Part shown: piece after piece, positions 3,515 to 46,878 of the stretch
Layout of the letters: each line of letters begins with the position of its first letter
How positions within the stretch are numbered: position 1 is the stretch's first letter
The notes under the pieces: model-generated
The model's input: the letters and a program-made list of their open reading frames with translations, nothing else
Told to the model about the DNA's origin: nothing
Database searches by the model: none
DNA from: Seison nebaliae
Taxonomy: Eukaryota
DNA length: 53,388 nt
Direction: 5' to 3'
NCBI GenBank assembly: GCA_023231475.1
Contig: JALJEE010000499.1
Span: 1-53,388, forward strand
Program-made: the position numbers and the translations under genes

Positions 3515-4771
3515 TTACATCATCGTTGCAAAAACAGGATTATGTCGACAGATTGATGGACCATGTTCTTCATAATCAGCACGTGTTTTACACGCTTGAT
3601 GGAATTCAGGTGTACTCGCCACATAACTCCCTCCAAACCAAACGGCATATCTCTGCATTGGATGTGTAACAACATTTAATTCGATCGGTTGTGGTTTCGT
3701 TCCTGTAATTTTCTCTGTTTCATTTAATCGTTCGTCTACGACTCTCTTCAAATCTTTTTTCAATCTTCTGTCGAAATCTTTGAACATTGTCGATCCTCCT
3801 GATAGAACAATATTTTTGTACAATCCACGACGGACATCGATTGGTGAATTTTGAATAACATCGTCGACCGTTTCCGAAATTGATTTACGAAAATTTGCAT
3901 TAACAAATTCTGGATGGAAAAATATTTCAGGTCCGAGAAATCGTTCGTGACCGATTTCCACATTAAACTTCCGTTTATTAATTGCATGAATTCCAGTGAA
4001 GGTTTTAATGTAACGATTTGAATCGTTTTCATATTTCTCGAATTCACGTGCAATATCTGGACAAACATAACAATATTGTTCTTTGATGGTTTTTGCCGTT
4101 TCTAATGATTGTTCAGGTGGCATTCGATGTGAATCGTCGACAACAAATTGTTCTCGTTCTCGAAGAAGTTGTTGAATGAAATATGTAATATCTCGTCCTG
4201 ATATTGGAATATGTTTGATACAACTACCAATGACATATCCTTCAGCTACTGGAATGACATGAGTGACACCATCACCTGAATCAATAACAACTCCTGTTAA
4301 ACTTTTTCCAACGTTCTGATTCGATGTACTCATTGGAGCAGCTAATGCTAATACTGCTTGAACGGCAATATAAAGTTTAGGCACGTTAAATAACTCGAAG
4401 AAAATTTCTGCTGTTAATTCTCGATTTTCTGGTGTATTCAACGGAGGTTCCGTCAATAAGAATGGATGATCTTCTGGTTCGACTCGTAAATATTTGAAAA
4501 TACTTTGCTCCCACAACTTCTCCATCTGATCCCAATTCTCTACCAGACCATGACGTATGGGCCATTTCTTACTGTAACCGGTGGCGTTCAAAGCTTCGTC
4601 GCCAATAAAAAAATCGAGATCTTCAAAACGACTCGTTATTTTGGATGAAGTAAATTGTTCTCGAATTGCAATCGAACTGGGAATAATGAATTGGGGGTGA
4701 ATATTACCAGCGAATCCCATTTTGGTGTAACCAGTTCCATTATCGATAACACAAGCTGGATAATGATCCAT
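3515..4771 (-). CDS. ACTR3: Actin-related protein 3 (Arp2/3 complex), intronless
   Basis: [48 protein letters not shown]-terminal [15 protein letters not shown]. Confidence 0.98.
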
Positions 4772-5398
4772 GAATTATATTGTGGTAATGATATGAGAGA
4801 AATAATAAATTGCTTTTAAAGAGAAGACCAAAATGATAAATCTCTTCGTTTGGTGTATATTTTTATGTTTATCTTCTTTCCATTCTTTTTTTTATAAATG
4901 ACATTAAATAATTGAAAATTATTCTTAAATTTTCCACAATTCTTATTCGTCTCAATTGTCGAAATGTTTCCAATTTAAGCTTCACACTAAATTTTTAGAA
5001 ATAGTCAAACATTTTATTAAGCCTTGAAAGTATTTGGATAAAAATGAAAAAATGAAAAATTTTATTGGAAAGATGAATAAAAAATTCATCGTCGATGATT
5101 CATTCATTTGAATAACAGAGAAATAATAACAATCGTTTTTTTTGTTTTAACTGAAATTTATGGAATGAGAATTAAATGAAAATTGATCAAAAAGCAAAAG
5201 TTGTTGTTGTTATGATGATTGGAGTGAAAATGTGAGTGAATAATATTTGTGAAATTTTGTGAAACGAATTAAAAGAAGAATGATTATTAGACGATCATCT
5301 ATTCAGTCGATATTCTATTGAAAGATTGAGGAACTAATGAATGAGAAAAAATTGAATGGAAATTGGAATCTATAAAAAATTTTCTCTGATCATCTTTA

Positions 5399-10079: not shown

Positions 10080-10704
10080 ATGAAATTTATTGTCATTCTT
10101 TCTTTCTTCATCTTCTATTCGACAATCGTTCCCATCGAATCAATGTATCAATTTAAAGGCATTACTTTCTACCCATTTCTAAGGAAACATAATCGAGTCG
10201 TCGCATATTTTTATGATCCCAAGTTTCCTTTTATTTAAAAGTTTAATGAAAGTTATTTTAAAAATAATGAAGAGATAAATTCAGCAATACTTTTCTGCCG
10301 ACGCTTTATTCTCTAACAAAACATTTCTCATCCACACAAACATTCTTCTCCATGATTGATGTATCTACCAGCGATTATGTTCGTGAGTCACATCGACATG
10401 ATGAAATTCCACGATTAACTTTCTTCTACAAACAATGGGAATGTGATACATTTCTATTGAATAATACCGTTCAAGTAGTTGGTTAATAATTCCAATAATT
10501 TAATGCTTAATTAGAAATTATCTTTAAGATTTAAAAAGGAAATTAAAAGTTGCATTAAAAAGGAATGATTTCCATCGTTGTACCATTGGTAGTTGGCAAT
10601 CGAATAAAAATGAAGGACAAAAAAATAATGCAAATCATCTATCAAAAGATTTTATGATTCTTTCATCATTTTGCATTTCAATGATATTTCTCAATAAATT
10701 TTAA
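10080..10704 (+). CDS. Thioredoxin-fold protein, paralog 3 (CXXC lost), 3 exons; missing from the ORF track
   Basis: MKFIVILSFFIFYS signal; VVAYFYDPK-DKFS; EIPRLTFF; WEC and CTIGSW; same two intron positions as the paralogs. Confidence 0.72.
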
Positions 10705-11726: not shown

Positions 11727-12227
11727 ATGGTTGATGCGAACACGAAAAAATTGTTATCGGGAATTCCCGTTTGTCGAACGAATGCTGGACCGCGTGACCC
11801 TAATTGGTCATCTCGTCTTAAAGAAGAATTCACAGCACTCATCGAATATGTGAAAAGGAATAAAGTTGCTGATAATGATTGGTTCAAATTGTCATCGGAT
11901 GAAACCGGATTCCGTTGGAATGGTAAATGTTGGTATGTACATACGGATATGAGGAAATATGAATTTGATGTTGAATTTGAAATTCCTGTGACATTTCCTA
12001 AATGTGCTCCTGAAATCGTCTTACCCGAATTAGATGGGAAAACAATGAAAATGTATCGAGGTGGTCGTATTTGTCTCACTGATCATTTCAAACCGTTATG
12101 GTCGAGAAATGTACCGAAATTTGGTATTGCACATGCCATGGCCTTAGGCTTAGCTCCATGGTTAGCGGTTGAGATTCCTGATCTCATCGAGAAAGGATTG
12201 GTGATTCATAAAGAAGATAAAAAATAA
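11727..12227 (+). CDS. UFC1: Ubiquitin-fold modifier-conjugating enzyme 1, intronless
   Basis: [57 protein letters not shown]. Confidence 0.98.
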
Positions 12228-15086: not shown

Positions 15087-18000
15087 ATGTTATCAATGTT
15101 CCCATATGTGAGAGATGCAAAAACGTTTTTGAAAGAAGTCAAACAATTGACAGTAACATCAGAACAGTTAATTTTATTTTGAAATTCCAAGAACGATTCA
15201 ATTGATTAGACAAATTGAAATATTTGATATCCTCGATCGATATTCTTTCATTATTTGTGCTCGTATACCATTTCTGGAAATTAAATTGGAACATGATTCA
15301 GCATTTTATAGATTTTATGGTGTACACAAAGTTCCACTCGTCGATCTCATATTAGTTAATGTTTTTAGCATGATTTAATTTGAGATTGATGATTAGATGT
15401 TGAGATCGTGTGATCGAGACAATTGGATATTCCGAAGAGAATCGACAAAGTTGGTGAAAATTCAAAATGAAAGAGTTGAATGTCTCATTGACGCTAATCA
15501 AAAGAGATGTTATTTTGAATCAATGGATAAGAGATTTTTGGAACATATTCGAAATGATCCATTATCTTATGCCACTTTCCATCAATTGTTCAGTGGCAAT
15601 AATGAATTCAGTCGAGCTTATTTGAAATTTTTCCGTTTATTAGAAACACCTTTATATCAATTTCGATTATTATATAATTGTTATTGTTTTGTTAAATGGA
15701 AAGAGGAATATATTAAATCTGATTATTATCTCCAATTGTCTGGAAAGAATGTTTTCAATCTCATGTTCCAAACTCGGAAATTGGAGAACATTTCCCATTG
15801 GAAAGATTTAGAAAACATTTTAAAAAGTTCCATTCTACCAATTCGCATTTATATTCATCGAGCATGTATCAAAAAGGACGATGAGAAAAGTTTAAATAAT
15901 TTCTTCAATTCACTTTTTGTGGGAGGAAAACAGAAAGAAGTATATTCCCAATTATCGTCAACAAAAGAAGGAATTGAAATGAAAAAGAATTTATTGAGAT
16001 TTTCAAGAAAAGTTTCTGGAAGAATTTTTTGTAAAAAATCTTATATTTCTCTACTTTTCCTTCGGAATCGATCGAGATTGAAAAGAGTTCCCACTAATTT
16101 CCTTTATCGACCATCTCAACAAATTTTCAAACTCTATTCAAAAATTGCTCTCAAATTATTTCCTTCCAATATTTTCAATCGATCAAATTTAAATAATTTA
16201 TTGAAATTAATGAACATTTTAATCTGTTTCGATGGGAGTCGATTGTGGAGATATGGGAAATTATTAGAAATGATCGATGTTTCCAATATCAATTCGAAGA
16301 AGAAGAAGAAGAAGAAGAATGAGAATTGTGAGACGTTGATGAAATTAATCATCGCTGTGGATTTATCTTGGAAATTGTTAACGAAATATTTTTATATTAC
16401 CGAAACTTCGGTAAACGCAAATAAATTATTTTTCATTTATCGATCGCATTGGAGAGAAATGGTGAATTCGAAACAATTTGAAAATTATATTAGTAAAAGT
16501 TGTCAAAGAATAGAGGAAAGAACTGGTGGTGGTGGAGGTGATGGATATGGTAAGAAATCTTCCTGTCGAATATTACCAAAATTAGCGATGAATAGATGTT
16601 TTTATAAATTTATTGGATTTCGATTAATCAATTCTTGGTCGAAAGAAGAAAAAGAGAAAAATAAGAGAATATTAACTTGTCTCAAATATGTGATGGAGAC
16701 GTTAGATGAAGAGAAGAAGAGAATGTTCAAAGGAGTTGGATTAGAAGGAATAAATAAGATCAATGACACATTAACAAAGTGGAAAGAGAAGAATAAAAAC
16801 GGAATGAATTTTTGTGTTTTAGCTGATATTACTCAATGTTTCGATAATATCATCTTATCTAAATTATTGGACGGATTAGAAGTGATGATACCAGATCGTG
16901 TTCAATTAATTATTCAAAATATCAATTCTTGTACTCTCTCTAAAAACAATTCATATCGAACTTTCTATCATGTGAATGAGAGAAAGAATTGGAAGAAACG
17001 GAAATTGAGTGATTCGATGAATGAGAATATTAGACCAAATAAAAAATTTCGAAATAATGAAGAGAAATCAATGGAGAAATTCGAAAGAAAACCAATTGAT
17101 CAATTGTCAATTATACGACGACAATCCAAATTAGAATTGTGGACGAAAGATAATTTATTGAATGAATTACGTTCACTCTTCTTCAATTCACAATTCCTGT
17201 TGAACAATAAGATTTATAAGAGAATAATCGGATTATCTCATTCCAATTGTCTTTCCCCACTTCTCACCAGAATTTATTTGGGAATGTCGGAAGTGAAACT
17301 AAATTGGTCGAACAACATTCGTCACATCGATAACGATCGATTATTCTTTACCGTTCGATATGTGGATGATTACATATTCTTCTTCAACAACAAATCAGAT
17401 GCTGTTCGACATGTTCATTTATTAAAAAATGGTTCGTTTCTTCTTTTTTTTAAACATTTATTCATTCATTCCATTAGAAATGAAAGAATTTAATATAAAA
17501 TTCAATTTAGCAAAAGTGAAAAAGAATTTTGATGAAACAAATAACGGAAGTTAATTAACTAAATGATTTAGAAAAAGTAAAATATTTGATAGAGCCTGAT
17601 AAAACATTGAAATGGTGTGGAAATATTATGGATCCGTCACTCAATTTGATACCTTCGTCAATGAAAATTTTATGTTTAGGTATGACAAAAAAATTTACAT
17701 ATGATTTGACATATTCGTCGATCATTCTAATTATTCTTCTTTAGATGAAATGTTATTTCAAAGGAAAAATTTTGATATAAAATTGAAAGAATTAATACAA
17801 GAAAAGTTCCATTTGTTTATGTTCATCGAATCATCATTATGAAAATTTCAGGTTTTTCAAACAATTGAAATGTGTGGAGAAATTGTATAAGAATAAAGTT
17901 TTGTTCATTTCAACTTATTAATAATTGATTTATTATTTATTTTAGAATAGTTATAGTTCGAAAGGAATCCTCCTTTATATCTGCAGATCATTCGCTACAC

Positions 18001-18722: not shown

Positions 18723-21700
18723 ATGTTATTTCGATTAACGAGGAGAGTGGTAGGAAGATGTGGTCAATCCATTTATTCCTTCCACACATCAGGAATTGAC
18801 CGAAATCAATTAGCTCTTCAGGAATTGTCGAAAATTTTGGAGGTAGTCTCAATTGACAGTGGAAAATTTAGTCATTTAAAAGAGAAAGTTCGAAGAAAGG
18901 AAGATGGATTGAAATTAATTGTAAATAATTTGAACGAGAAGAAATTAATTGAAAGAAGACGACGAATTAATGAAGATATTTTAGCGAAAGTCGATGCATA
19001 TCTTTTCACATGTCAACGAGAGAAGATTGTGGAGATGTTAGAGAATGAATTGACAAATAAGAGGAATGGTCATCAACGACAATTGAGTTCGATTTATGTT
19101 GTTAATTATATTTTAACTCAAATGTTTCACGAGAAGGAAATCAAACGATATCAGATCGAGAAGATTATGAATTTGTGTCAGAAGAAATTGGCTTATTCGT
19201 TGAATACTCATTTACTTCTATTAGGAATCGAATGTCGATTGAGAAATGGAAATGAAATGATAAATGAAGAGAATGATGAATTGATCAATTTATATAAGAA
19301 TTTGAGGAAAGAAATTTATAAATATTTTTATCGAAATGATCGAAATCAATATTTATCAATCAATATCGATCATTGGCAAATGGAGACATTTGATAAACGA
19401 CTTTTTCTCTTATTGACAAGAGATAATGAAATTCGTTATCAATTGAAACGATGTGATAAATTATATCGGAAATATTGTGACGATCGAAATATTTATGGTT
19501 CTCTCAATCATATGAGTCTTATGAGTCTATTGGAAAAATTATCGAGAAATCAAGAAAGAATGAAAGGAACTCAATTAATTAATCGTCGAAATTTAGAATC
19601 TCATGAATCATTTCATCTTTTCAAACTTCAATTAGAAAGAGAATTATCATTATCAGTTCGTATTCCTTCAATTTCCGTTGAGGAAATTCATATGAGAAAT
19701 AAACGGAAATTGAAGAAGAAGAAATGGAAAATGAAGATGGATGATGATATGAATGTGAAAGATGAATTGAAAAAGAATTATTATAAACAAAAATTGAAAT
19801 TGTTGTTGATGAGAAAATTCGAGAAATTGAGAAGTCGACGAAATGATGACGATAATGTCTGGTTTCAATTGATGCCAATGCAGAAATATATCGATATGTT
19901 ACTCAATTTTTATATAGAGCAATTATGTTTGGGAGGAAAGGGATCGAGTGAGAGTGAAGAATTTGTTAATACTAATCAATTATCTCATCGCTTGGGTGTG
20001 ACTTTATATCAACAATATTATCAACATCGTCTACCAAATCGTCAATTACAATTGTTATATATGAATTATTTGAATCGAATGAAAAATGATAATCATATTA
20101 ATGGTCGTCAATTATGGTCGTCTCTATTGAACGAAGACGATTTGTCGTTGAATAATTATAAGAAATTGTCACTACTCCCAATTTGGTCATATCGTTTAAC
20201 ATCGAGATTAGGACGGAAATTATTCAATTTAATTTTCTTCATTAATCCAAATGATGAATATGAATTATTGGAAAAGAAGAAAAAGAAAGGAAAAGATGAA
20301 AAATTACCAGCACTCTTATATGGAATTTATCGATTGGAAAGTCAATTGAAAAAAGGAATGAGAAAAGAAGAGAAGAAATCGAATGAAAAAGATTGTCCGC
20401 CCCAAATTTGTGTACCTGACTTTTGGAAAGAAGTTTTCAATGAAACTCATTATTTATCATTTCCAGCTGCTCATCTTCCTATGATTATTCCACCAATTCC
20501 ATGGCATGAAGGTAATCGTGGTGGTGGATTGTTGTTGGGACAAACGAATAAATTAGTTCGAATTGCTCATTCGGCTGATGAGAGTTCATTAATTCAAACT
20601 TCCATTTCATCATATCGACCATTCTCGACGATATTCGATTCGCTCAATATTCTCAGTTCATGTCAATGGAAAATTAATGAATTCGTTTTAGATATTGCCA
20701 TCAAAATGTTTCAATGTGGAATATCATCAGAAGCGTTGGGTCTTCCTAAATCGCCCAACGAATTCCTCCAAAACATTTCCACACCATCACCACCAAATCT
20801 CTCCAATTTCACCCCATTGGAATATATGGAAGAATTGAAGAAATGGAAAGAGAAATATGTGAGGATTTTAAAGAAACAGAAAGAAATGAAAAAAATAAAA
20901 AACGAACAATATTCATTGTGGTGTATGACTTGGTATCAATTATCGATTGCTAATTATTTTCGTACGAATATTATTTGGTTACCACATAATTTGGATTTCC
21001 GTGGTCGAGTATATCCATTACCACCACATTTCTCTCATATGGGATGTGATTTAGTACGAAGTTTATTGAATTTTCATGAAAAAAAGAAATTGGGAGAAAC
21101 TGGTCTCGATTGGTTAAAGATTCATTTGACAAATTTAACTGGTCATTTGAAAAAAGCGACATTAATCGAACGAAAAGAATATGCAGAATTGAATATTTCA
21201 AAAATTATTTTGTCAGCAGAAAATCCGTTAAATGAATCATGGTGGATGAATAGCGATGATCCATGGCAAACATTGGCATGTTGTAAAGAGTTGATGGAAG
21301 CAATGAAATGTGATGATCCCAAAGAATTTTTGTCTTCCTTACCAATCCATCAAGATGGTAGTTGTAACGGTTTACAACATTATGCCGCATTAGGTCGAGA
21401 TATTGATGGTGCACGATCAGTGAATGTTTTAGGTAGTGGACGTCCACAAGACGTTTATTCTGATGTTGTTGATCGTCTTTTATCACTCATCAAAAAAGAC
21501 GATAGTCAATTAGCGAATTTGACGAGGAAAATTATTACAAGAAAAACCATCAAACAAACGGTAATGACGACGGTTTATGGTGTAACTCCATTTGGTGCTC
21601 GCAAACAAATTAGTAAACAATTGAGATTGAATCCAATAATAATTGAGAATAGTGAAAATAATGAATTGATTCCACAATTGGCATTATTTTTACAGACTCA

Positions 21701-22301
21701 AACATTCCGTTCTCTTAGAGAAATGTTCACATCGACAAGATCCATCCAAAATTGGTTAGTATCGTGTGCGAAAGATATCGTTAAATTGAGAAATGAACCT
21801 GTAAAATGGATTACTCCTTTAGGTCTTCCTGTTGTTCAACCATATTTCATAAAGAGAACAGAACGAATCAATTCAGATAATTATCTCAAGGATAAATTCT
21901 CATCATCATCTCGACCGATAATGAGGAAACAATTGAATGCATTCGCACCTAATTTCGTCCATTCTCTCGATTCAACTCATATGATGTTAACTGCATTATC
22001 GTGTGGAAAGGAAAATATTAGATTTGTATCGATTCATGACAGTTTTTGGACACATGCCATCGATATCGATCAAATGGGAAAGATATGTCGAGAGGAATTC
22101 TTACGATTACATTCTTCTGACATATTAGAAGATTTATCGAAACAATTTATTTCTAATTATTCTTTCCGTCAAAATGAATTTAAAAATTCTCCTTTAATGA
22201 CTGAAGAAATGAATCGTTTCAATCGACTCATTCAACAAATTCCGAAAAAGGGACAACTTAATATAAATGACGTTCTCGATTCACTCTACTTCTTCTCATA
22301 A
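18723..22301 (+). CDS. POLRMT: Mitochondrial DNA-directed RNA polymerase (T7-like single subunit), intronless
   Basis: Arg-rich presequence-like start; LPHNLDFRGRVYP, PIHQDGSCNGLQHYAAL, RKTIKQTVMTTVYG, PNFVHSLDSTHM, IHDSFWTH, terminal YFFS. Confidence 0.97.
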   Translation: MLFRLTRRVVGRCGQSIYSFHTSGIDRNQLALQELSKILEVVSIDSGKFSHLKEKVRRKEDGLKLIVNNLNEKKLIERRRRINEDILAKVDAYLFTCQREKIVEMLENELTNKRNGHQRQLSSIYVVNYILTQMFHEKEIKRYQIEKIMNLCQKKLAYSLNTHLLLLGIECRLRNGNEMINEENDELINLYKNLRKEIYKYFYRNDRNQYLSINIDHWQMETFDKRLFLLLTRDNEIRYQLKRCDKLYRKYCDDRNIYGSLNHMSLMSLLEKLSRNQERMKGTQLINRRNLESHESFHLFKLQLERELSLSVRIPSISVEEIHMRNKRKLKKKKWKMKMDDDMNVKDELKKNYYKQKLKLLLMRKFEKLRSRRNDDDNVWFQLMPMQKYIDMLLNFYIEQLCLGGKGSSESEEFVNTNQLSHRLGVTLYQQYYQHRLPNRQLQLLYMNYLNRMKNDNHINGRQLWSSLLNEDDLSLNNYKKLSLLPIWSYRLTSRLGRKLFNLIFFINPNDEYELLEKKKKKGKDEKLPALLYGIYRLESQLKKGMRKEEKKSNEKDCPPQICVPDFWKEVFNETHYLSFPAAHLPMIIPPIPWHEGNRGGGLLLGQTNKLVRIAHSADESSLIQTSISSYRPFSTIFDSLNILSSCQWKINEFVLDIAIKMFQCGISSEALGLPKSPNEFLQNISTPSPPNLSNFTPLEYMEELKKWKEKYVRILKKQKEMKKIKNEQYSLWCMTWYQLSIANYFRTNIIWLPHNLDFRGRVYPLPPHFSHMGCDLVRSLLNFHEKKKLGETGLDWLKIHLTNLTGHLKKATLIERKEYAELNISKIILSAENPLNESWWMNSDDPWQTLACCKELMEAMKCDDPKEFLSSLPIHQDGSCNGLQHYAALGRDIDGARSVNVLGSGRPQDVYSDVVDRLLSLIKKDDSQLANLTRKIITRKTIKQTVMTTVYGVTPFGARKQISKQLRLNPIIIENSENNELIPQLALFLQTQTFRSLREMFTSTRSIQNWLVSCAKDIVKLRNEPVKWITPLGLPVVQPYFIKRTERINSDNYLKDKFSSSSRPIMRKQLNAFAPNFVHSLDSTHMMLTALSCGKENIRFVSIHDSFWTHAIDIDQMGKICREEFLRLHSSDILEDLSKQFISNYSFRQNEFKNSPLMTEEMNRFNRLIQQIPKKGQLNINDVLDSLYFFS

Positions 22302-22512
22302 ATCGATTTAATTCAATGAAATAATTTTATCTCATTTTCATATTCCCATCTAATATCTTGTACAGCTCTTCCATACAAGTTTTAGTTTGTAAAGAAATTA
22401 TTCAATTTTCAATATCTCATTTGAATAAATTTTATGTGAACAAACAGCTTTTCTCATCATTCTTCTTCTTCTCTTGTTGTGGTAACAAAATAGATCGAAT
22501 CAATTCTTATCC

Positions 22513-22526
22513 GTTGCTATGGTAAC
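22513..22526. promoter_or_regulatory. RFX X-box-like palindrome GTTGCTATGGTAAC
   Basis: Matches the 14-bp X-box pattern GTNRCY-AT-RGYAAC; lies 3 bp upstream of a small-ORF ATG. Confidence 0.65.
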
Positions 22527-22529
22527 CAG

Positions 22530-22700
22530 ATGAGTGAAAATGGAAATTTGATAATTCCTGATATGGAAGACAGATATAAATCCATTTCAACCTTCATATG
22601 GTCAACATCGAATTTGAATGAAGAACAAAAAGGAATTGAAAACGAATTATTTCCAAAATTAACAAATCAGAAATCTTCAGCAATCTGTACATTTTTATAA
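22530..22700 (+). CDS. Putative 56-aa prenylated microprotein (C-terminal CaaX, CTFL)
   Basis: MSENGNLIIPDMEDRYKSISTFIWSTSNLNEEQKGIENELFPKLTNQKSSAICTFL*; below the ORF-track cutoff; AATAAA about 25 nt after the stop. Confidence 0.6.
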   Translation: MSENGNLIIPDMEDRYKSISTFIWSTSNLNEEQKGIENELFPKLTNQKSSAICTFL

Positions 22701-22762
22701 AATTAATAAGATATTTTCATTTGGAAATAAAATCTAATAAAATAAACATTTTTTATCCATTA

Positions 22763-23706
22763 TCAATTCTGATCATCATTTAAAATAATTGAAACAATTT
22801 TATCATCCTTATTCTCATAATTATTCAATCGTTCATTTTCATAATCTTCATGTGTCTCATAGAAATTGATATGTTTATGAATGGAGGAATCACTTTCAGC
22901 TAAACGTTTCATACTCTCTTCGAATGCTTCTTGTATCAGATTATTCATCGAATCCGTTTTCTTCAAAATTTCTCCTTCAATTTGATCAGTCTCTGCATCC
23001 AAATCCAAATTCTTTAAATTTTCCGTATTTTTCAAAAAGTTTCGATACAATTCATTCTTTCGTTTTTGCAGTTTCTCCTTCCTTGTCCACTCTCGAATTA
23101 AATAATTCGTTTTTGTGATAAGTGGTCGAATATCATAAAATTTAAATTCCTCTAAAATATATTCCAAATAAGATTTCCCTCGATGAATGAAAGACTCGGA
23201 TATTTCTCCAAAAACATTCTTCTTCAAACTTTCTTCGTTCTCTTTCAATGAGACTGTCGCTAACAATTCATCTTCTTCCTCTCTCTCCATATCAGTCAAT
23301 CGTCGAGCACCGATTGATAATATTTCTGCACGAGTTTCATTCTCCGATTTCTGATGTTTTAACACCGCTATATTATTATAAACGGAGACAGACAACTATT
23401 TCAATAAATATTTTTTATAAAATAATCTCAAATATCAACTTGATTAGTCTGAAATTGTTTATCTGGCATCAATTCACATTTCTCCACATCATTTATGACT
23501 ATCTCTAATTTATTTGTTCTGAGGAATTGTAAGACCAAATTGAAGACATCTGGATCTCTATCAATAAATATTCGATTATTTGGATCAACTCCACAAGGCA
23601 CTTGTCGCATCACTATATTATACAAATGGGATTTCGTATATTTAATCAAAGTGTTCATGGTCGTCGTAAATTTCCTTCCTCCCACATTGATTGTTAGTGC
23701 ATTCAT
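22763..23706 (-). CDS. KCTD-type BTB/T1 domain protein with coiled-coil C-terminus, at least 2 exons
   Basis: TINVGGRKFTTTMNTL...IFIDRDPDVFNLVLQFLR; a GTTGAT...ATAG intron joins it to ORF 22763-23395. Start uncertain. Confidence 0.8.
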
Positions 23707-24319
23707 GATTTCCTTCCTTTCCAACCAAATGAAAAATGGAAATTAGTATAAATTGAAAATTGTTTAAAAATTTCACCTGAAACTGAACACTTTGTTTAAA
23801 ATTAATCAAAAATTTAATTTTAATGTTTTTTTGTTATCGAATTATCAGTTTATGATTTTACAGAATTTTTATTTTCATATATTATAACATCATAACAGAA
23901 GACAGACTTTTAATAGCTTCACTAAAATTCACTATTCAGTTTTCCCCTTTGGAATTAGTTTATACTCCGAAAAAATCATATTACTACAAAACTGCGAGAT
24001 AAATTGTCTTGTAGAGTGATTTTACTCTGATGGTTCAGAATTTTGATCTTTTAAAGAATTCTTTTCGGTGTTTTTAAGTTTAAAATAAGCCAATCAAATC
24101 AAAATTATACATAACTTCCGACTGTCATGAATGATGTACATAAATTGAAATGAAATAAATAATTAAAATAAATATAAACTGTGTGAACATCTTTAATTTT
24201 TTATGATGCTCTGTACGATTCCTTAACGAAATTCTCTTTAAGAAAATCCATTTTAAATTTTCATTTTTTTGAAACTGACTGTTAGAGATTTGCAGTTCAT
24301 CATTAAATTAAATTTCACA

Positions 24320-25256
24320 ATGCAATCGATTACGAAAAATGATGATGTTGAATTCAATCAATCGAGCAATCTTCATGAAGATGTAAAATTGGAACTTGTC
24401 GAAAATAAAGAACGTTATTATTATGGTAAATTATGATATTTTTATTTTTTTTTCTAGAGTCTCAACTGAATTCGGATTACAATGTTGATTCAGCTCATCA
24501 CGAATTAAATAGAAAATCTTTTGTTTCAAATGGACAAATCATAATCACTAGTGGGGCTCATTTATATTTGAATGATATATCTGAAACTGTCAATGAAAGT
24601 AATCCGGTTGAATTGAAAGATGTGAGTAATGTCGAAGAGATTGTTACCAGGAAAGAGAATATAGAGAAACACGAAAGAAACCGCCAAATAAAATATCGAA
24701 AGAAAATAGAAGTTTATAAATTTCTTTTCGTAATTTCCAATTTAAATTATATTTATAGTTCTCTTCCAACTCCTTTCCACCTAATAGAGGTAATTGGGAT
24801 ATGTTAAAATTGAATAAATTAAATGAAATTTCCGAAGCTATAATAAATTTACAAAAAAAACTGAAGGAAACGGATAATTTGAATATTTTTGCGCCAAATT
24901 CGAAAGCCGCTCGATTTGTCGCACAACATTCCCCCAAATTGCGAGAACGGTCAATAAAATTGCTGGAGGTGGAGAAGATAAAAGAACCGAATTTACCTCA
25001 GGAATTCGATCCCTACTTAATGCTACGAAGATATTTGAACTTAAATCACGATAATTTGACGAGAGCATTTGGTAAAAGAGCGAGAGACGCTTCTAGTGAA
25101 CCAATACATTCGTCAAAACTGATTAAAAATGATCACCATTTCAAAATGGAGAAGAGAGCAACAATGAAATACGAATCTGACGTAGAATTGGAAGATGCTG
25201 ACAAGCAGTTTGAACTAATTCATTTTCAAGCATTCGGACCCGAATCAAAACGGTGA
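24320..25256 (+). CDS. Hypothetical protein (no recognised domain), at least 3 exons
   Basis: ATG at 24320 and two GTT...TAG introns join three open frames. The 3' end is uncertain; a further intron could extend it to about 25308. Confidence 0.55.
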
Positions 25257-39395: not shown

Positions 39396-42300
39396 TTACA
39401 AATGTAAGAACATCGGTCGTCGATTAATGTCACGTCTGACTAATTCCCAAATTTCTCGATTATTCTTTTTAAGTTCGGAGAAAAGTTGTTTCAATAAATA
39501 TGATTGATGGAATTTTTCGAACATGTTCATCGTTTCATTTATCATGTTCATAATTCCAGTTGACATTGGAGATGTATAAGTGACTCCTTGATGATTGATA
39601 TTAATACTAAATTTATTCAAGAGATTAATACAACGACTGAACATGGATATCGTATAATTTGCGAGTGGAATTAAATTGATACATTTCAAATATGGTTTCA
39701 TTGTATTATCTACTGGTCGCATGAGATTGTTATTGATAACTCTCATTCGTTTCGTCCATGTCATTTGAACGGGAATCTTACCCGCCAAACGCAATGGACT
39801 TGTCCAATCGTTTTTCCTCAAATAATAATTCGGTTCTCGATGAACCATTTTATTGATGATGACAGGAACATCCAACAAGAAATGATGAGCATATTTCAAT
39901 TGAAATGTGTCATATCTATAAGACGATCCGTTGCCGAATTGTAAGACACAATAAGTGAGATTATTGAGAGAATAGGAAATATTTTTCAATATGAGTGGAT
40001 CGGTGATAGAAGTGCAAACGGTTTCGATAAACTCGTCAAATTCTTTATCTCCCAAAAAGAAAAGTAATTGAATTGTCCATTCAATACCATCGGTATGTTT
40101 TGAGAAATTGCCAGAATAACTAAGTAATTTAATAGCAAGTAAACATACTTGAAATGATCGATATACATTTCTCTTAATATCAGCATTGTCATCATCACCT
40201 TTCAATAATTCCGTTTCGTCCACTGGTTTCTTCACTAATTGCAATTGTTGATGAACATGAGAACTATTTGGTTGAAAGAATGGTCTGTTACACAGACAAC
40301 AATCAGCAGCTGGTATTTCATTCTTTCTCAACACTAATGAATGTTCACGAACTGCCAATGCCTCCACATAAATGTCACACCAAAGACGTGCAATTTCAAA
40401 AAGAATTTCTGTATCATGAAATCCGCCCGGATCGTCCACTGAACGGTCGATAACACAATCTCTAATATTTGCAAAAAGTATTGGAGTGGATTTGATTGAT
40501 TCATAATATTTCCTTGCCGAATTAACGAGGAGACGACATCCTTCATCTAAACATCGATCTCCACCATATTCTACACATTGATGTAATAATTGTTTCGTTA
40601 TAAAATTAGTTAATTCATGTCCTCGTGATAATCCTTCGAAAGCGAATGTTACTATCCATCTCTTCAATGGACGATCGGAATGAGTGAGGAAATCCGATAA
40701 TCTTCCCAATTCATCTGTCGACAAAATACTTCGCCAACATCTGAAAAAGAATTTCATCAAATTATCCGGCAACACTTCTAAAATCTTTGCAAGAAATTGA
40801 GTATAGTCATTGAAATCGCGATGGAGCCAAGCCTCTTTATAAATTCCATTATACACTCCCATAGCATATAAAGTGATAAGGAGAACGAATACGACGGAAA
40901 TACATGTGTCAGTTTTTGAACGACAATGTGGCGAATATTGTGATGAGGACCAACTGGGACCGAAATGTAAACCAATATAAGGCTCATAACATGATCCGAT
41001 TGAACCCAACAACGTCGTCGATACTGATAATAACCATTCGAAATACCAGAAATTAATATTATAACCATGGCGATGATAGAACATGTTGTATTTGGGACGA
41101 TAATCTGAATCATTCATCTTTTCAATTCTTTCCGTTAATCGTTGAGAAATAGTGAAAAATATTTTATAATTTTTCAAATATTTTTCAAATAATTTATTTT
41201 CTTTCTCTTCCGAACAAATCGATCGGAAATCATTCCCCTCATCCTTCAACATTATACAATTTTCTTTTGTTGTATTTATCATTTGTTGAGGTTCCATCGG
41301 ACAAGTCGGTATATATTTCACTGGAAATTCAGTTACTCTCAAATAAATATTTGTCGATTCAATTTTGTGAAGGAATGAAAGTCCATCAGATTCAATTGAT
41401 ATGTCACTTATCATAGGGAAATAATGATTATGAATTGTCGTTGTAAATTCGGAGGGAACTTTCGAAATTTCCATTAATGGATCATAATACGAAATATTCT
41501 CCATTTGTACTGGTTCGTTCGTTGTTTTTAAATAATTATATAATCGGAAATTTTCCGTTCTCCATCGAATATACGAAAAATCATATTCATTTGTCATCCG
41601 TCTAATTTTCAATCTAATCTCATCAGAATCTTCAATTAATTGTGGATAAGCCGAACACAAATAATTTGAACTTGTACATTGTTTTGATGGAGAACTCGAA
41701 TTTTCTAATCGTTCACTAGTGGCACAATTGACACATGTATTATAATCATCACCTAATCGATTAGATGGATTAATCGCCGATCTTTTTTCATTTATTCGAA
41801 ATGATTCAACTTCCGATTCAGCTTCCGTTGTAGTTTCTTGAGGTTCCGATGACAATATATTAATATTTTGATATAATCGATGTTTATGTTGTTCAATCAA
41901 TAATGATGATTTGAGACGTTTAGCGAAATATGTGTCAGGTGTCGTCGTCTCAACATCATCACTACCTGAATGTGTTGACGATCTCATTGGTGGTACAGGA
42001 ATTGATCGGAAAACTTTATCATTATTTTCCATCCGTTTCTTCATCATGATCGAATCGTAAACACAAGACAAATGTTTATCGATTACTTCAATTCCGTTTC
42101 GAGAGAAATGTTGAGGAAATTCCATCGACAATTCATCCGAATCTTCTCCCAAATCTTCACTCCATTCAAAATGGATAATTGGAAGAAATTGACACATCTC
42201 CTCTTGGAAATAACGACGGAGATTCTCCGTAAAAAAATATGCTAATCGATTACCTACATTATTACGAAGATTAAAATTATAAAATGGATCGATGTCCAAT

Positions 42301-45218
42301 GTCATGTAATCAGGAGATTCAAAAAATTTATGGAATCTTTCATCTAATAGACACCATAAAATATATTTACATTCACTAATTCTCTCATTTTTAGTGATGA
42401 TATTAGAAAGAATAATTCGTTGTCTCATTCGAATTATATGAATGAGAAAATGACCTTTCGATTCTTCCATGATCGTTGGCATTTTCAATACATTCCCAAT
42501 AAATTTAATGAAATTCACACCGTTCTTATCATAGACACCATGAAAAGAATTATATACCCACCATAACGTTTCACATAATGCCAATGGAGGAATAGTTTCT
42601 ATGGAAATTTTATTTGTACGAATTTGATGATGATTTAAAATATTCTCATAAATCCAATTTCCTTTCGATAACATTAACAAAATGATTTGATGAATATTCA
42701 AATTTTTTAAATAATCAAGTGGATTCTTTTTAATTATTCCACATAAAATTCCATTTAATTGAGTTTGAATCATCCAACATGATTGTTCAAGGAATGGTGG
42801 AAACATTCCCATTCGTGGATAAAGAAGACCAAATAAACATAAACGAGCTGCCATTAAATTATCTAAATCGAAAACTATTGTTGTTGTTACTAATAATTTT
42901 AATTCCTTCATTATAATTATTCCATCAAAATGATTATAATATGAATGGGATTTGGTTTTTGAAAAATAATAACGATCATCATTTTTGATTCTTCTCAAAT
43001 AAAATGATTTAATATCATCAGATAATATCATTTTATTATCCGTCAATTTCAATTTATCATCATAAAATTTCAAATAACATTCTCCAACAATCAAAGCGAG
43101 AATTGTAGATAAATAATGATCACCATTCACATCGAGTGATTTGATGTTACTCATTAGAAGTGGTAAAATGTCTTCATTCCTTCCACTCAATTCATTATCG
43201 ATTTGATCGATATAATTAATTATTCCTCTTCGACAATTCTCATAAAGTTTTTCCATATATATCGGAATTTTTCCACGTGAATTTAAAGTAACTCGATAAT
43301 TCGTTTTGATTGCTACGGAATCTTTCTGAAAAATATTATTGATCGATCGCCATTCTCGAATATTTTCATTCTCCAAACCGATCAATCCACCAAATCGATT
43401 ATATAATCTCTTGATGATGGGATGATTAGATGAATAAATATATTCTTGTGGTAATCGTAAGAGAAGTCGTACATGATGAAATCCGAAGAAATAATTATGA
43501 TTATTAATTAAATTCAATTTAAACGAAACAATTTGACGATCCAATTCCGTCAAAACATCTAACACAACATTGAACATCATCGAATGTGTTTTATCATAAT
43601 GAATGGAAAGTGGAAATTCTGGTTCATTAAATGTTCTCAATTGTTCGTGAATGAATGGAGAATGATAGACTTTTAACCATAATTCCTCCAACTCCTCGAA
43701 TAAATTCCATACCAATTGAATTCGATGAGTTAATATTGTCTCATTAATCGGTTTATCACATTTGTAAGTGTAGGAGGAATGCCAATCGGAAACGACATTT
43801 GGAAGATTGATGAGAATTAATGTGAAATAATAAAGAGAACGATAATCATAATGAATCTTTTTAATTATTTCAAAATTGATGACTTGAAAGAAACTGAAAA
43901 TTTGAGGTGGAATTGGTCGTTGATATGTCAATTCATTAATTTTTGCATCGAACGCTTTTCGAATGAAATAAGTTTTTTGATCAAAAAAATCGATCATCGA
44001 TTGATATTCGTCTTTGAAATGATCGAGGAAAACGATATGTCCCATCGAATTCGCTTCCTTCATCATTCGAACGAATGGATTCATTATTAATAAATCATCA
44101 TCTTTCATTCCTTTCATTTTCATTGCCGTTTTCAATAAACAATAACAACGACTCAATATATCAGCACTAATTAAACGTTCTTTCTCTTTTATCCATTCCA
44201 CATCAACATAATTGAAAAGTTTCACTTCTTCTTTCGGTTTTTCTATCACGTCAATCATTTTCATAACATCATAAACTTCTTTCAATTCAACTTTCTTCAA
44301 TAAATTCAATGCCACTCTTCTTAAATGTTCGTGTGACAAATCTTCGAAAACCATCGATAACGGTAAACGATATTCGATTTGATGTGGATAAAATAATCTT
44401 TTCCAGAACACTTGCATCACATGAAGACAACAATAATCTCGTGATATTTCTGAAATCATATCGGATTGTGATTGAATACCTAAAACTCCTTCAATCTCTC
44501 CTTCTTTTCCCAACGGTCTCTTATGTTTATTGACATTGGGATAGATCGATGATGATGGTGCTGATAATGAATTGTTCATTTCTTCATTCTGTGATGAACA
44601 CAATCCACAATTGAATGAAGTTATTCGTTTCTTTGAAAATTTAATAAAAACTGGTACGGGTAATTTATGATCTTCTTGATATAATCCTCCATTCGCCACC
44701 ATCGCATAAATCGTCGTACCGATTTGATAAATATCTTTCACACTACCACTATTCATTAATTTCTCGAGGTAATCGGGAGAGAATGTACGATTGAGAATAT
44801 GCGTATAAAGTGTTCGTTCCACTTTGCGGAAAATGAATGACATATCGGAAGGAAATGAATAAATTAAAATTCTTAATTGTAAAAAATCAGGTAATGTCGG
44901 CCATATATCCATCAATTGTTTCAGAGTGAACTTACTCGCCAATATCGTACAACATCGATCAACTAAACAATTTTCGATGAGGAATAATGGTTTCAACTTT
45001 TTAACTTTGAGTGGAACTGGAATCGATACCTTCTCATTTCCATCATCTTCATCATCTTTTTCATATTCACCGTTTAAATATTTGGATTTGGGAAGGAGAA
45101 GTTGACCATCCTTCCCATAAATCAAACGAATATTCCTCTCACTAACATATCTACCAACAGTCTCCCAATAAGATTTCAACCATACTACGCTATTCGGCGA
45201 CGTCGATTCAGATATCAT
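39396..45218 (-). CDS. Zinc finger SWIM domain protein, ZSWIM4/5/6-like, intronless, 1940 aa
   Basis: BC-box/Cul-box-like LVDRCCTILA...LPDFLQLRILIYSFP; SWIM-like ITSFNCGLC...CCLHV followed by YRLPLS; TEILFEIAR. Confidence 0.78.
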   Translation of the reverse strand: MISESTSPNSVVWLKSYWETVGRYVSERNIRLIYGKDGQLLLPKSKYLNGEYEKDDEDDGNEKVSIPVPLKVKKLKPLFLIENCLVDRCCTILASKFTLKQLMDIWPTLPDFLQLRILIYSFPSDMSFIFRKVERTLYTHILNRTFSPDYLEKLMNSGSVKDIYQIGTTIYAMVANGGLYQEDHKLPVPVFIKFSKKRITSFNCGLCSSQNEEMNNSLSAPSSSIYPNVNKHKRPLGKEGEIEGVLGIQSQSDMISEISRDYCCLHVMQVFWKRLFYPHQIEYRLPLSMVFEDLSHEHLRRVALNLLKKVELKEVYDVMKMIDVIEKPKEEVKLFNYVDVEWIKEKERLISADILSRCYCLLKTAMKMKGMKDDDLLIMNPFVRMMKEANSMGHIVFLDHFKDEYQSMIDFFDQKTYFIRKAFDAKINELTYQRPIPPQIFSFFQVINFEIIKKIHYDYRSLYYFTLILINLPNVVSDWHSSYTYKCDKPINETILTHRIQLVWNLFEELEELWLKVYHSPFIHEQLRTFNEPEFPLSIHYDKTHSMMFNVVLDVLTELDRQIVSFKLNLINNHNYFFGFHHVRLLLRLPQEYIYSSNHPIIKRLYNRFGGLIGLENENIREWRSINNIFQKDSVAIKTNYRVTLNSRGKIPIYMEKLYENCRRGIINYIDQIDNELSGRNEDILPLLMSNIKSLDVNGDHYLSTILALIVGECYLKFYDDKLKLTDNKMILSDDIKSFYLRRIKNDDRYYFSKTKSHSYYNHFDGIIIMKELKLLVTTTIVFDLDNLMAARLCLFGLLYPRMGMFPPFLEQSCWMIQTQLNGILCGIIKKNPLDYLKNLNIHQIILLMLSKGNWIYENILNHHQIRTNKISIETIPPLALCETLWWVYNSFHGVYDKNGVNFIKFIGNVLKMPTIMEESKGHFLIHIIRMRQRIILSNIITKNERISECKYILWCLLDERFHKFFESPDYMTLDIDPFYNFNLRNNVGNRLAYFFTENLRRYFQEEMCQFLPIIHFEWSEDLGEDSDELSMEFPQHFSRNGIEVIDKHLSCVYDSIMMKKRMENNDKVFRSIPVPPMRSSTHSGSDDVETTTPDTYFAKRLKSSLLIEQHKHRLYQNINILSSEPQETTTEAESEVESFRINEKRSAINPSNRLGDDYNTCVNCATSERLENSSSPSKQCTSSNYLCSAYPQLIEDSDEIRLKIRRMTNEYDFSYIRWRTENFRLYNYLKTTNEPVQMENISYYDPLMEISKVPSEFTTTIHNHYFPMISDISIESDGLSFLHKIESTNIYLRVTEFPVKYIPTCPMEPQQMINTTKENCIMLKDEGNDFRSICSEEKENKLFEKYLKNYKIFFTISQRLTERIEKMNDSDYRPKYNMFYHRHGYNINFWYFEWLLSVSTTLLGSIGSCYEPYIGLHFGPSWSSSQYSPHCRSKTDTCISVVFVLLITLYAMGVYNGIYKEAWLHRDFNDYTQFLAKILEVLPDNLMKFFFRCWRSILSTDELGRLSDFLTHSDRPLKRWIVTFAFEGLSRGHELTNFITKQLLHQCVEYGGDRCLDEGCRLLVNSARKYYESIKSTPILFANIRDCVIDRSVDDPGGFHDTEILFEIARLWCDIYVEALAVREHSLVLRKNEIPAADCCLCNRPFFQPNSSHVHQQLQLVKKPVDETELLKGDDDNADIKRNVYRSFQVCLLAIKLLSYSGNFSKHTDGIEWTIQLLFFLGDKEFDEFIETVCTSITDPLILKNISYSLNNLTYCVLQFGNGSSYRYDTFQLKYAHHFLLDVPVIINKMVHREPNYYLRKNDWTSPLRLAGKIPVQMTWTKRMRVINNNLMRPVDNTMKPYLKCINLIPLANYTISMFSRCINLLNKFSININHQGVTYTSPMSTGIMNMINETMNMFEKFHQSYLLKQLFSELKKNNREIWELVRRDINRRPMFLHL

Positions 45219-46878
45219 TTCTGGTGAGCAAATCTCAATAATTTCTCCACGAAATTTGACTCATGTGCACCAATGGAAGTTTCACCTCCTGTACCTTTTT
45301 CGAAAAATATTTATTTTTCTGCTTTCTTCTAATGAAATTAATACAAATTTTCACATGAACCTCAATTTAAATTTAAAATTTTCAATTTTCATGTTCTCCT
45401 TCCTCCAACATTTATTTCCACTAATTTTACCATTTGGAAATAATTTTTTAGAATATATTATTATAGGAAATTAGATCATCTCAATCAATTAGATGATGAA
45501 TAATATGGAAATTTAGCAATTTTATTTTGATATATAAATCGTCATCAATAGAAAAAGTATTTACTTCAATTTATCTCATAAATTCTCTATGTCAATTGAG
45601 TGATGGAATAGAATGAGAATAGATTAATTTCTTTCCTCAATTCACAATTCGATAATTAATTTGATAGAATTTGAATAATTTAATGAGATAGAACGAATAA
45701 TTTAACATAAGAAAAATAATATTTTTTAAATTATTTTATGAGAAGTTGTAGCTGTAAATCTACAACAGTTTCAATAGTTGTCTCATAAACTTTAAAATAT
45801 ACATGTCCATCTTTTTTACATTAGATAAAAGAAGAAATTTGATTTGATTCAGTTCGATGTCAATTCGATCGAATGAGACAGGGAAAAAGTATCAGAAGAT
45901 GCCAAGAAAGAAATTTTTGAGAATTTATTGAAGAAAAGAATGTAGAATTCCGTTTAACCTCCCCATGACCTCCTAAACCACCACATCAATAAAGAAATGT
46001 TTCATTTAAAAATTTATCAGTTTCCAATATCATTTCTTCGATTTGATTAAGCCGAAAATTTCAATAAAGTAAACGTTGAGGTGAAATAGAAATGAGAAGT
46101 AGTCGAATGAGAATGAGGACGAAAGATGAAGAATAAATAATGGAAATAATTTCCCGATTATTTTTTCCCCACAACAAATAATTGTTTGATAATGTAATTG
46201 TGAGGTGGATGTCGATTTATACGTAAAAATTTTCTCTTTTTGATCATTTGATTATTCAATTGGTATATCTATGATTGTTCATTAGCAGTCTTGTGATTCA
46301 TTCGATTGCGAACGAATAATTTTTCAATGGAGAATTGTGAATGATTTAACCTGATTGTAGATTAATCTCATTTTTCCAAAAGAAAAGAGGACAATTGAAA
46401 AACTTTAAAAATAAAAGATCTTTATCAAAAATCTTTTAGCGTGTTATGACATATTCATTAGAATAATCCATCACTCCTCATTAATCCATTTGGAGAAATG
46501 GTGTCATAATAACGTCAACTATAACTTTGTTTTAATTAGAAGTCTAGTTGAAAGTTTTAAGTCATTTTCAAACATTTCGTCTCTTTATATATATTTGATT
46601 TGTGGTGAATGAGATGATTGTATAAAGAAGTAGTTAATGGAAATAAATTGTTTAATGTTCTTTTCTTTCTCTTTCAAATAGATATGGGAATTATTCATTC
46701 ACTTCTTAATAATATTCTCTCAATTCTCCAATGAAACTGATTGTAAAAGAAACTTTCACTTATATAATTTTAACTAATCACTCTTCTACTACATTCTAAC
46801 AGTTGGATAAATTGTTGTACGAAGTTTGAACGAAAGAAAATCAGTTGAAAGGGAATTAATAGGTAAATTGTATTAGGA

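Follow-up and report, generated by a model that had tools for sequence, protein, structure and literature searches.

A candidate gene for a prenylated ciliary microprotein next to an X-box in Seison nebaliae

X-boxes are binding sites for RFX and mark ciliary genes, and proteins with a CaaL end are geranylgeranylated. Both features occur together at a small open reading frame (ORF) of Seison nebaliae, and several described systems resemble it in single respects. Among the closest are INPP5E and GRK1, high-affinity PDE6D cargo with a C-terminal prenylated cysteine (PMC5512577; PMC8842248). A prenylated cysteine is also predicted for the candidate, which has serine at the −3 position and isoleucine at the −1 position, the exact pair reported for INPP5E. 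The candidate differs from these proteins in having no enzyme domain and only 45–56 amino acids, and it is likened to them by its tail and not by sequence homology. Its X residue is leucine, which predicts a geranylgeranyl group, and its a2 residue is phenylalanine, which makes cleavage and methylation doubtful.

UBL3, NIM1K and FAM219A are CaaX proteins, small or little characterised, that have serine at the −3 position and are reported to be bound by PDE6D via the prenyl group (PMC9857354). They are longer and possess family domains, whereas the candidate has no Pfam match, FAM219 included. In C. elegans, tza-3 is described as an X-box gene that encodes a ciliary protein and is not conserved (PMC5145144). 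TZA-3 is predicted to be a transmembrane protein of the transition zone, whereas the candidate is predicted to be lipid-anchored. PRCD is described as a lipid-anchored protein of about 6 kDa in a ciliary compartment, the photoreceptor outer segment. Its palmitoyl group sits on Cys2, close to the N-terminus, in contrast to the C-terminal prenylation predicted here, and the two proteins are likened by description only. G-gamma-5, a small helical protein ending in CSFL, is reported to be geranylgeranylated (PMC11304957), as is predicted for the C-x-F-L end of the candidate. The candidate has no G-gamma Pfam match, however, and lacks the motifs of that family.

The locus and its transcription signals

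The window, which is the whole 53,388 nt stretch of S. nebaliae DNA that was analysed, belongs to a compact genome that is AT-rich and has short introns. Nine introns delimited by eye range from 32 to about 77 nt. Very long uninterrupted frames (39399–45260 on the minus strand, 1954 codons; 18723–22301 on the plus strand, 1192 codons; 3518–4774 on the minus strand, 419 codons) lie beside genes with such introns, which points to strong genome compaction. The exact POLRMT protein encoded here was found in NCBI nr. For UFC1, every relative among the 120 matches listed has an identity of at most 74%, and on such comparisons the source animal is a long branch, poorly sampled in databases. The ORF at 15397–17490 (+), with an RT-type YVDD motif near its end, is presumably telomerase reverse transcriptase-like. 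A multi-exon gene at 24320–25256 (+) has Gly-Lys-Arg type sites, and two scanned pieces of it gave no significant Pfam match; our impression is that it is possibly a neuropeptide precursor.

The stops of POLRMT (22301) and of the KCTD-like gene (22763) converge on a gap of 461 bp, in agreement with the roughly 460 bp given originally, and the candidate ORF lies inside it. Both annotated neighbours end in this gap and neither starts there. The KCTD-like gene is oriented convergently with the small ORF. The X-box, the ORF, its C-terminal motif and the poly(A) hexamers were read directly from the window (Table 1).

Table 1. Positions of the features discussed, numbered within the window
Feature	Position	Strand	Remarks
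GGTAAC half-site	22481..22486	+	26 nt before X-box; putative function
RFX X-box, 14 bp, imperfect palindrome	22513..22526	+	consensus match; similarity to validated worm boxes
Candidate ORF, 56 codons + stop, ends KSSAICTFL*	22530..22700	+	sequence, coding scores
C-terminal Ser50-Ala-Ile52-Cys53-Thr-Phe-Leu-stop	22677..22700	+	GGTase-I motif with Ser-3/Ile-1; sequence, literature
Three AATAAA hexamers	22726..22746	+	+26, +36 and +41 nt past ORF stop
AATAAA	22424..22429	+	123 nt past POLRMT stop, upstream of X-box
POLRMT (mitochondrial RNA polymerase)	18723..22301	+	one 1192-codon ORF; Pfam RNA_pol E 1.8e-145
KCTD-like BTB gene	22763..23706	−	Pfam BTB_2 E 8.9e-16; two exons, 44-nt intron
UFC1	11727..12224	+	usually well conserved
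Chance-control CaaX ORF, 39 codons, canonical-looking end	starts 34654	−	antisense to another gene, no strict X-box

The original prediction described the X-box as a 14-bp palindrome. The box is present and matches the 14-bp consensus exactly on both strands, although the palindrome is imperfect, with two mismatches to its own reverse complement. Strict patterns, which we take to represent the X-box consensus, matched at this site only in the 53,388 nt, with no mismatches. The exact refined worm consensus was matched in 7/100 shuffled windows. Two matches to a narrow pattern with up to two mismatches occurred in 0/100 shuffles, and a broader pattern with two mismatches permitted had one match in 37/100. 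A relaxed pattern has eleven further matches in the window, including those at 10175 (+), 10252 (−), 51784 (+) and 5206 (−). The reverse complement of the box is one nucleotide off the validated osm-6 and dyf-5 boxes (PMC3245922, Table 1). No mention of this 14-mer as an X-box was found in the literature searched. An X-box carried in by a transposon was considered and rejected; among the matches listed, other full-depth contigs match the gap over 21–43 nt only, so the site looks single-copy.

The 3' end of the box lies 3 nt ahead of Met1. Its 5' end is 17 nt before Met1 and 50 nt before Met12, an alternative start at 22563 that gives a 45 amino acid product. Validated worm X-boxes are listed at 60–285 nt upstream of the ATG, with one at 767 (PMC3245922). 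The distance to Met1 is shorter than this range and Met12 fits better. In choanoflagellates, 60.4% of ciliary promoters are reported to have an RFX motif no more than 50 bp from the start site (PMC10530576), and RFX motifs cluster at the start site in both choanoflagellates and humans (PMC10530576, PMC5838959). A second GGTAAC half-site had been placed about 30 bp further upstream and is indeed found there, 26 nt off. It is no second full X-box, being absent from the matches at up to two mismatches to the broader pattern, and a splice donor, with the CAG just ahead of Met1 as its acceptor, is an equally good reading. The possible 5'-UTR intron (22482–22529) would be 48 nt long, and no in-frame ATG lies upstream.

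Three or more AATAAA hexamers per 50 nt were found in only 3/1360 non-coding windows, and the cluster behind the ORF likely serves the small gene as its poly(A) signal. The single AATAAA ahead of the X-box is likely POLRMT's own; 8/14 other putative gene ends in the window have an AATAAA within 200 nt. A region that is simply the 3' UTR of a neighbour had been named as one outcome that would refute the gene. The POLRMT version of this objection is weakened by the separate AATAAA that this gene has ahead of the X-box. The KCTD version may still hold, since no sense AATAAA occurs within 200 nt for this gene and its 3' UTR may therefore run antisense across the ORF, where the minus strand is pyrimidine-rich and 3' UTR-like.

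The C-terminal motif

Cys53 is four residues from the C-terminus with leucine at X, the position expected of a CaaL cysteine. The a2 residue is phenylalanine and not aliphatic, which departs from the canonical cleavable form and makes the motif a non-canonical CaaL. CTFL was among the Rho1-CXXX hits recovered in yeast lacking FTase, all of which are reported to support growth (PMC11304957). In the Ydj1 screen of the same report, CTFL was enriched 5.04-fold at 42 °C and 0.70 at 37 °C. By analogy with these reporters, which carry the tetrapeptide and not the candidate peptide, the candidate end would be accepted by GGTase-I. The Ydj1 screen favours uncleaved ("shunted") motifs, and CSFL, the sister motif in G-gamma-5, is described as prenylated and uncleaved (PMC11304957). 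CTFL is thus probably prenylated yet uncleaved. The geranylgeranylation proposed originally for the CaaL end is borne out for the tetrapeptide as a yeast GGTase-I substrate, with the reservation that its phenylalanine is non-canonical.

Ser50 and Ile52 occupy the −3 and −1 positions before Cys53, in agreement with the PDE6D code of serine at −3 and a large hydrophobic residue at −1. These two residues are reported to set PDE6D affinity, and INPP5E, with serine and isoleucine, binds with high affinity (PMC5512577; PMC8842248). When the −3 and −1 residues of INPP5E and Rheb were swapped, the Kd values were reversed (697 vs 12 nM) and exclusive ciliary localisation was lost (PMC5512577). Serine at −3 was present in 12/25 prenylated PDE6D preys (PMC9857354). 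High-affinity PDE6D cargo whose prenylated tail has serine at −3 and isoleucine at −1 is described as being released by ARL3 in cilia. The code was defined on a cleaved, carboxymethylated terminal prenyl-cysteine (PMC8842248). PDE6D binding of the candidate would weaken because CTFL is probably uncleaved.

Serine at −3 is insufficient for ciliary localisation. FAM219A binds PDE6D and was not seen inside cilia in the experiments reported, and NIM1K and UBL3 with a serine to lysine change were still localised (PMC9857354). HRAS, which is non-ciliary, also carries serine at −3 (PMC8842248).

Coding likeness, chance expectation and homologs

The predicted 56-codon ORF is in the sequence with the end described for it. 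Its length alone is not beyond chance, because 5–12% of randomised gaps contain an ATG ORF of at least 56 codons (1215/10,000 Markov and 470/10,000 shuffled gaps). Randomised gaps with a CaaX-ending ORF of at least 45 codons were rarer (16/10,000 Markov, 6/10,000 shuffled). In one-strand simulations with a fixed anchor, 104/60,000 cases had an ORF of at least 30 codons that began no more than about 60 nt away and had C-x-x-[LFIMV] at its end. Such a CxxL-type ORF that also had serine at −3 and a hydrophobic residue at −1 occurred in 4/60,000 cases of the same type of simulation, or 4/104 of the CxxL-type ORFs. In the real window 5/275 ATG ORFs have cysteine at −4, and one besides the candidate has a plausible CaaX; it serves as the chance control in Table 1. 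The expected number of coincidences between X-box and CaaX, obtained arithmetically from the shuffle and anchored-simulation rates, is 0.0005–0.001 per window (0.14–0.28 chance X-boxes per window × 0.0035), so that a few are to be expected when very many windows are scanned. The X-box and the CaaX end are partly spent as evidence, because a very large scan selected the locus for both. Most weight is therefore placed on features that were not used in the original prediction.

One such feature is base usage. The frame-specific Markov score of the ORF is 4.2 bits, and only 1.3 bits when counted from Met12. It was equalled by 16/1500 simulated and 8/95 real non-coding stop-free stretches, with a likelihood ratio of 8.4, and the codon score was equalled by 5/52 off-frame or antisense stretches. 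The base usage of the ORF leans towards coding, with a likelihood ratio of about 2–8. True coding chunks outscored the ORF in 94/109 cases by codon score and in 105/120 by Markov score, which places it in their lowest 12–14%. Its GC fraction is 0.27, compared with 0.24 in non-coding sequence and 0.30–0.33 in the flanking coding stretches. Downstream of Ile52 a single GT-AG pair could splice the motif out, and at 24 nt it is shorter than any of the nine introns seen. A typical-size intron after Ile52 would thus not remove the CaaX end, and donors earlier in the ORF are possible. The 3–4 full-depth polymorphic differences listed all fall outside the ORF and are too few to test selection. Readthrough from POLRMT was rejected as a source of the ORF; the two share a frame, yet a stop follows six codons past the POLRMT stop. 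The proposal that two signals mark an overlooked gene has gained from the PDE6D code, the acceptance of CTFL in yeast, the separate poly(A) signals and the coding-like usage, and is tempered by the common length and the low coding score.

Homologs were not recognised in the original prediction, and the searches agree. A Pfam scan of the candidate peptide gave no family with an E value of 10 or less (HMMER filters on, weak matches dropped). No homolog at E up to 10 was found among proteins of 30–98 amino acids (one candidate) or 99–2000 amino acids (three candidates). A phmmer search of 1.84 billion representatives gave two matches, both tandem-repeat proteins that sum 8–9 weak stretches, and these were rejected. 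An atlas search with the candidate gave no match, the best E among PDB sequences was 0.51, and neither the peptide nor the final 200 amino acids of POLRMT found a relative in metagenome scans. These blank searches say little because even for UFC1 none of the relatives listed exceeds 74% and the ORF has only 56 residues. Rfam gave three matches, the best with E 1.8 and 21 bits against a gathering cut-off of 50.

A single-sequence structure model predicts helices at residues 12–27 and 31–46 and a loose tail (mean pLDDT 69, pTM 0.31). With this low-confidence two-helix model Foldseek found no match, and the best VIA-align Z was 4.3, with none of at least 5 among 48,161 chains. Both the 56 and the 45 amino acid forms are missing from the protein collection, in which POLRMT and the zinc transporter of the window are present; 2/6 proteins were found in this check, and UFC1 and Arp3 as we delimited them were also absent. 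Reads of runs X1–X5 over the stretch are DNA-like, with flat depth and the KCTD intron not skipped, and runs X6 and X7 contributed no contig to it.

Runs X3 and X5, and X2 with one contig, also contain contigs of 3–4x depth that are about 81–88% identical to the window and collinear with POLRMT and KCTD. They cover 20614–21989 and 22833–23747, and most of the differences listed (A>G, T>C) fall on third codon positions. By their sequence, these low-depth contigs are from a second, related organism in the sample. None of the pieces listed falls on 21990–22832, a hole that also spans conserved POLRMT coding sequence and is therefore uninformative.

Alternative readings and a proposed mechanism

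The ORF at 22530–22700 is probably a real protein-coding gene that has escaped annotation. The balance tips slightly towards its product being a geranylgeranylated ciliary microprotein that is driven by RFX and belongs to no known family. Use of the PDE6D route specifically is doubtful. The fuller picture, in which RFX directly controls a microprotein without domains that combines a helical hairpin with an address for PDE6D/ARL3 transport to the cilium, is less likely than not.

Chance is an unlikely explanation. The gap would then consist of POLRMT and KCTD UTR plus a terminator, and X-box and CaaX would be a coincidence picked out of a large scan. The ease with which null gaps yield ORFs of this length, a coding score near the bottom of the true coding range, the second coincidental CaaX ORF in the window and the refined consensus matches in shuffled windows all speak for chance, as do the missing sense AATAAA of KCTD and the pyrimidine-rich minus strand. 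What chance accounts for poorly are three features that played no part in the first selection: the serine and isoleucine found in so few chance CxxL-type ORFs, the coding likelihood ratio, and a plus-strand AATAAA cluster that has no other owner. We consider it quite improbable that the product is a small prenylated protein of other membranes, uncleaved like G-gamma-5, with an X-box that drives expression in sperm or neurons or drives nothing. Such a protein would fit the shunted behaviour of CTFL in yeast, the serine of non-ciliary HRAS and the absence of PDE6D-bound FAM219A from the cilia observed. It fits less well with the presence of both serine at −3 and isoleucine at −1, and with an X-box that is a near-perfect ciliary-type site.

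The chances are slim that the X-box is functional and the ORF is not, the box acting as a 3' enhancer for KCTD, whose start is about 1.2 kb away, or for another neighbour, or as the promoter of a non-coding RNA. The box lies very near Met1, which favours such a role, and in a permissive window human X-boxes are reported as far as +1400 from the start site, but distant functional ones are the exception (PMC5838959). Rfam has no match above chance, and the C-terminal motif would be left unexplained. Least credible is that the peptide has diverged strongly from an established family of small CaaX proteins, such as G-gamma or FAM219, or that the ORF is a last exon used alternatively by POLRMT. Two predicted helices and a C-x-F-L end do resemble G-gamma-5, and divergence would be expected in so long a branch, but Pfam detected no family and the G-gamma motifs DPL and NPF are missing from the peptide. 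Splicing from a GT at 22272 would fuse the ORF in frame to POLRMT. This join needs a 258-nt intron, far beyond the sizes seen, and would delete the terminal residues of the polymerase, which are essential.

If the ORF encodes the ciliary microprotein, RFX would bind the X-box, at or beside the start site, in ciliated cells and give rise to a short single-exon mRNA. Translation would start at Met1, or at Met12 if the transcript begins downstream of the box, and the mRNA would end past the AATAAA cluster. GGTase-I would then modify Cys53 of the 45–56 residue product, and a PDE6D-type carrier together with ARL3 would deliver it to the ciliary membrane. The carrier step probably requires removal of the last three residues, which CTFL may resist. 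With no catalytic or transmembrane part, the two short helices may bind a partner at the membrane, and the protein would act as a small tethered adaptor. We infer this course of transcription, translation and trafficking, and the adaptor role; the acceptance of CTFL by the enzyme and the sorting code are taken from other systems.

The candidate is well formed and unproven as a gene. No report of a prenylated ciliary microprotein was found in the part of the open-licence literature that was covered. If the reading is true, a lineage-restricted microprotein joins the ciliary membrane toolkit and would be the smallest prenylated ciliary cargo so far. Whether an uncleaved C-x-F-L end can take the PDE6D route would then also be put to a natural test. 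The pairing of an X-box with a CaaX end that has serine at −3 and isoleucine at −1 would expose small genes that escape both homology searches and annotation. Annotation would then be overlooking a class of X-box-driven CaaX microproteins, which could be found systematically by motif pairing.
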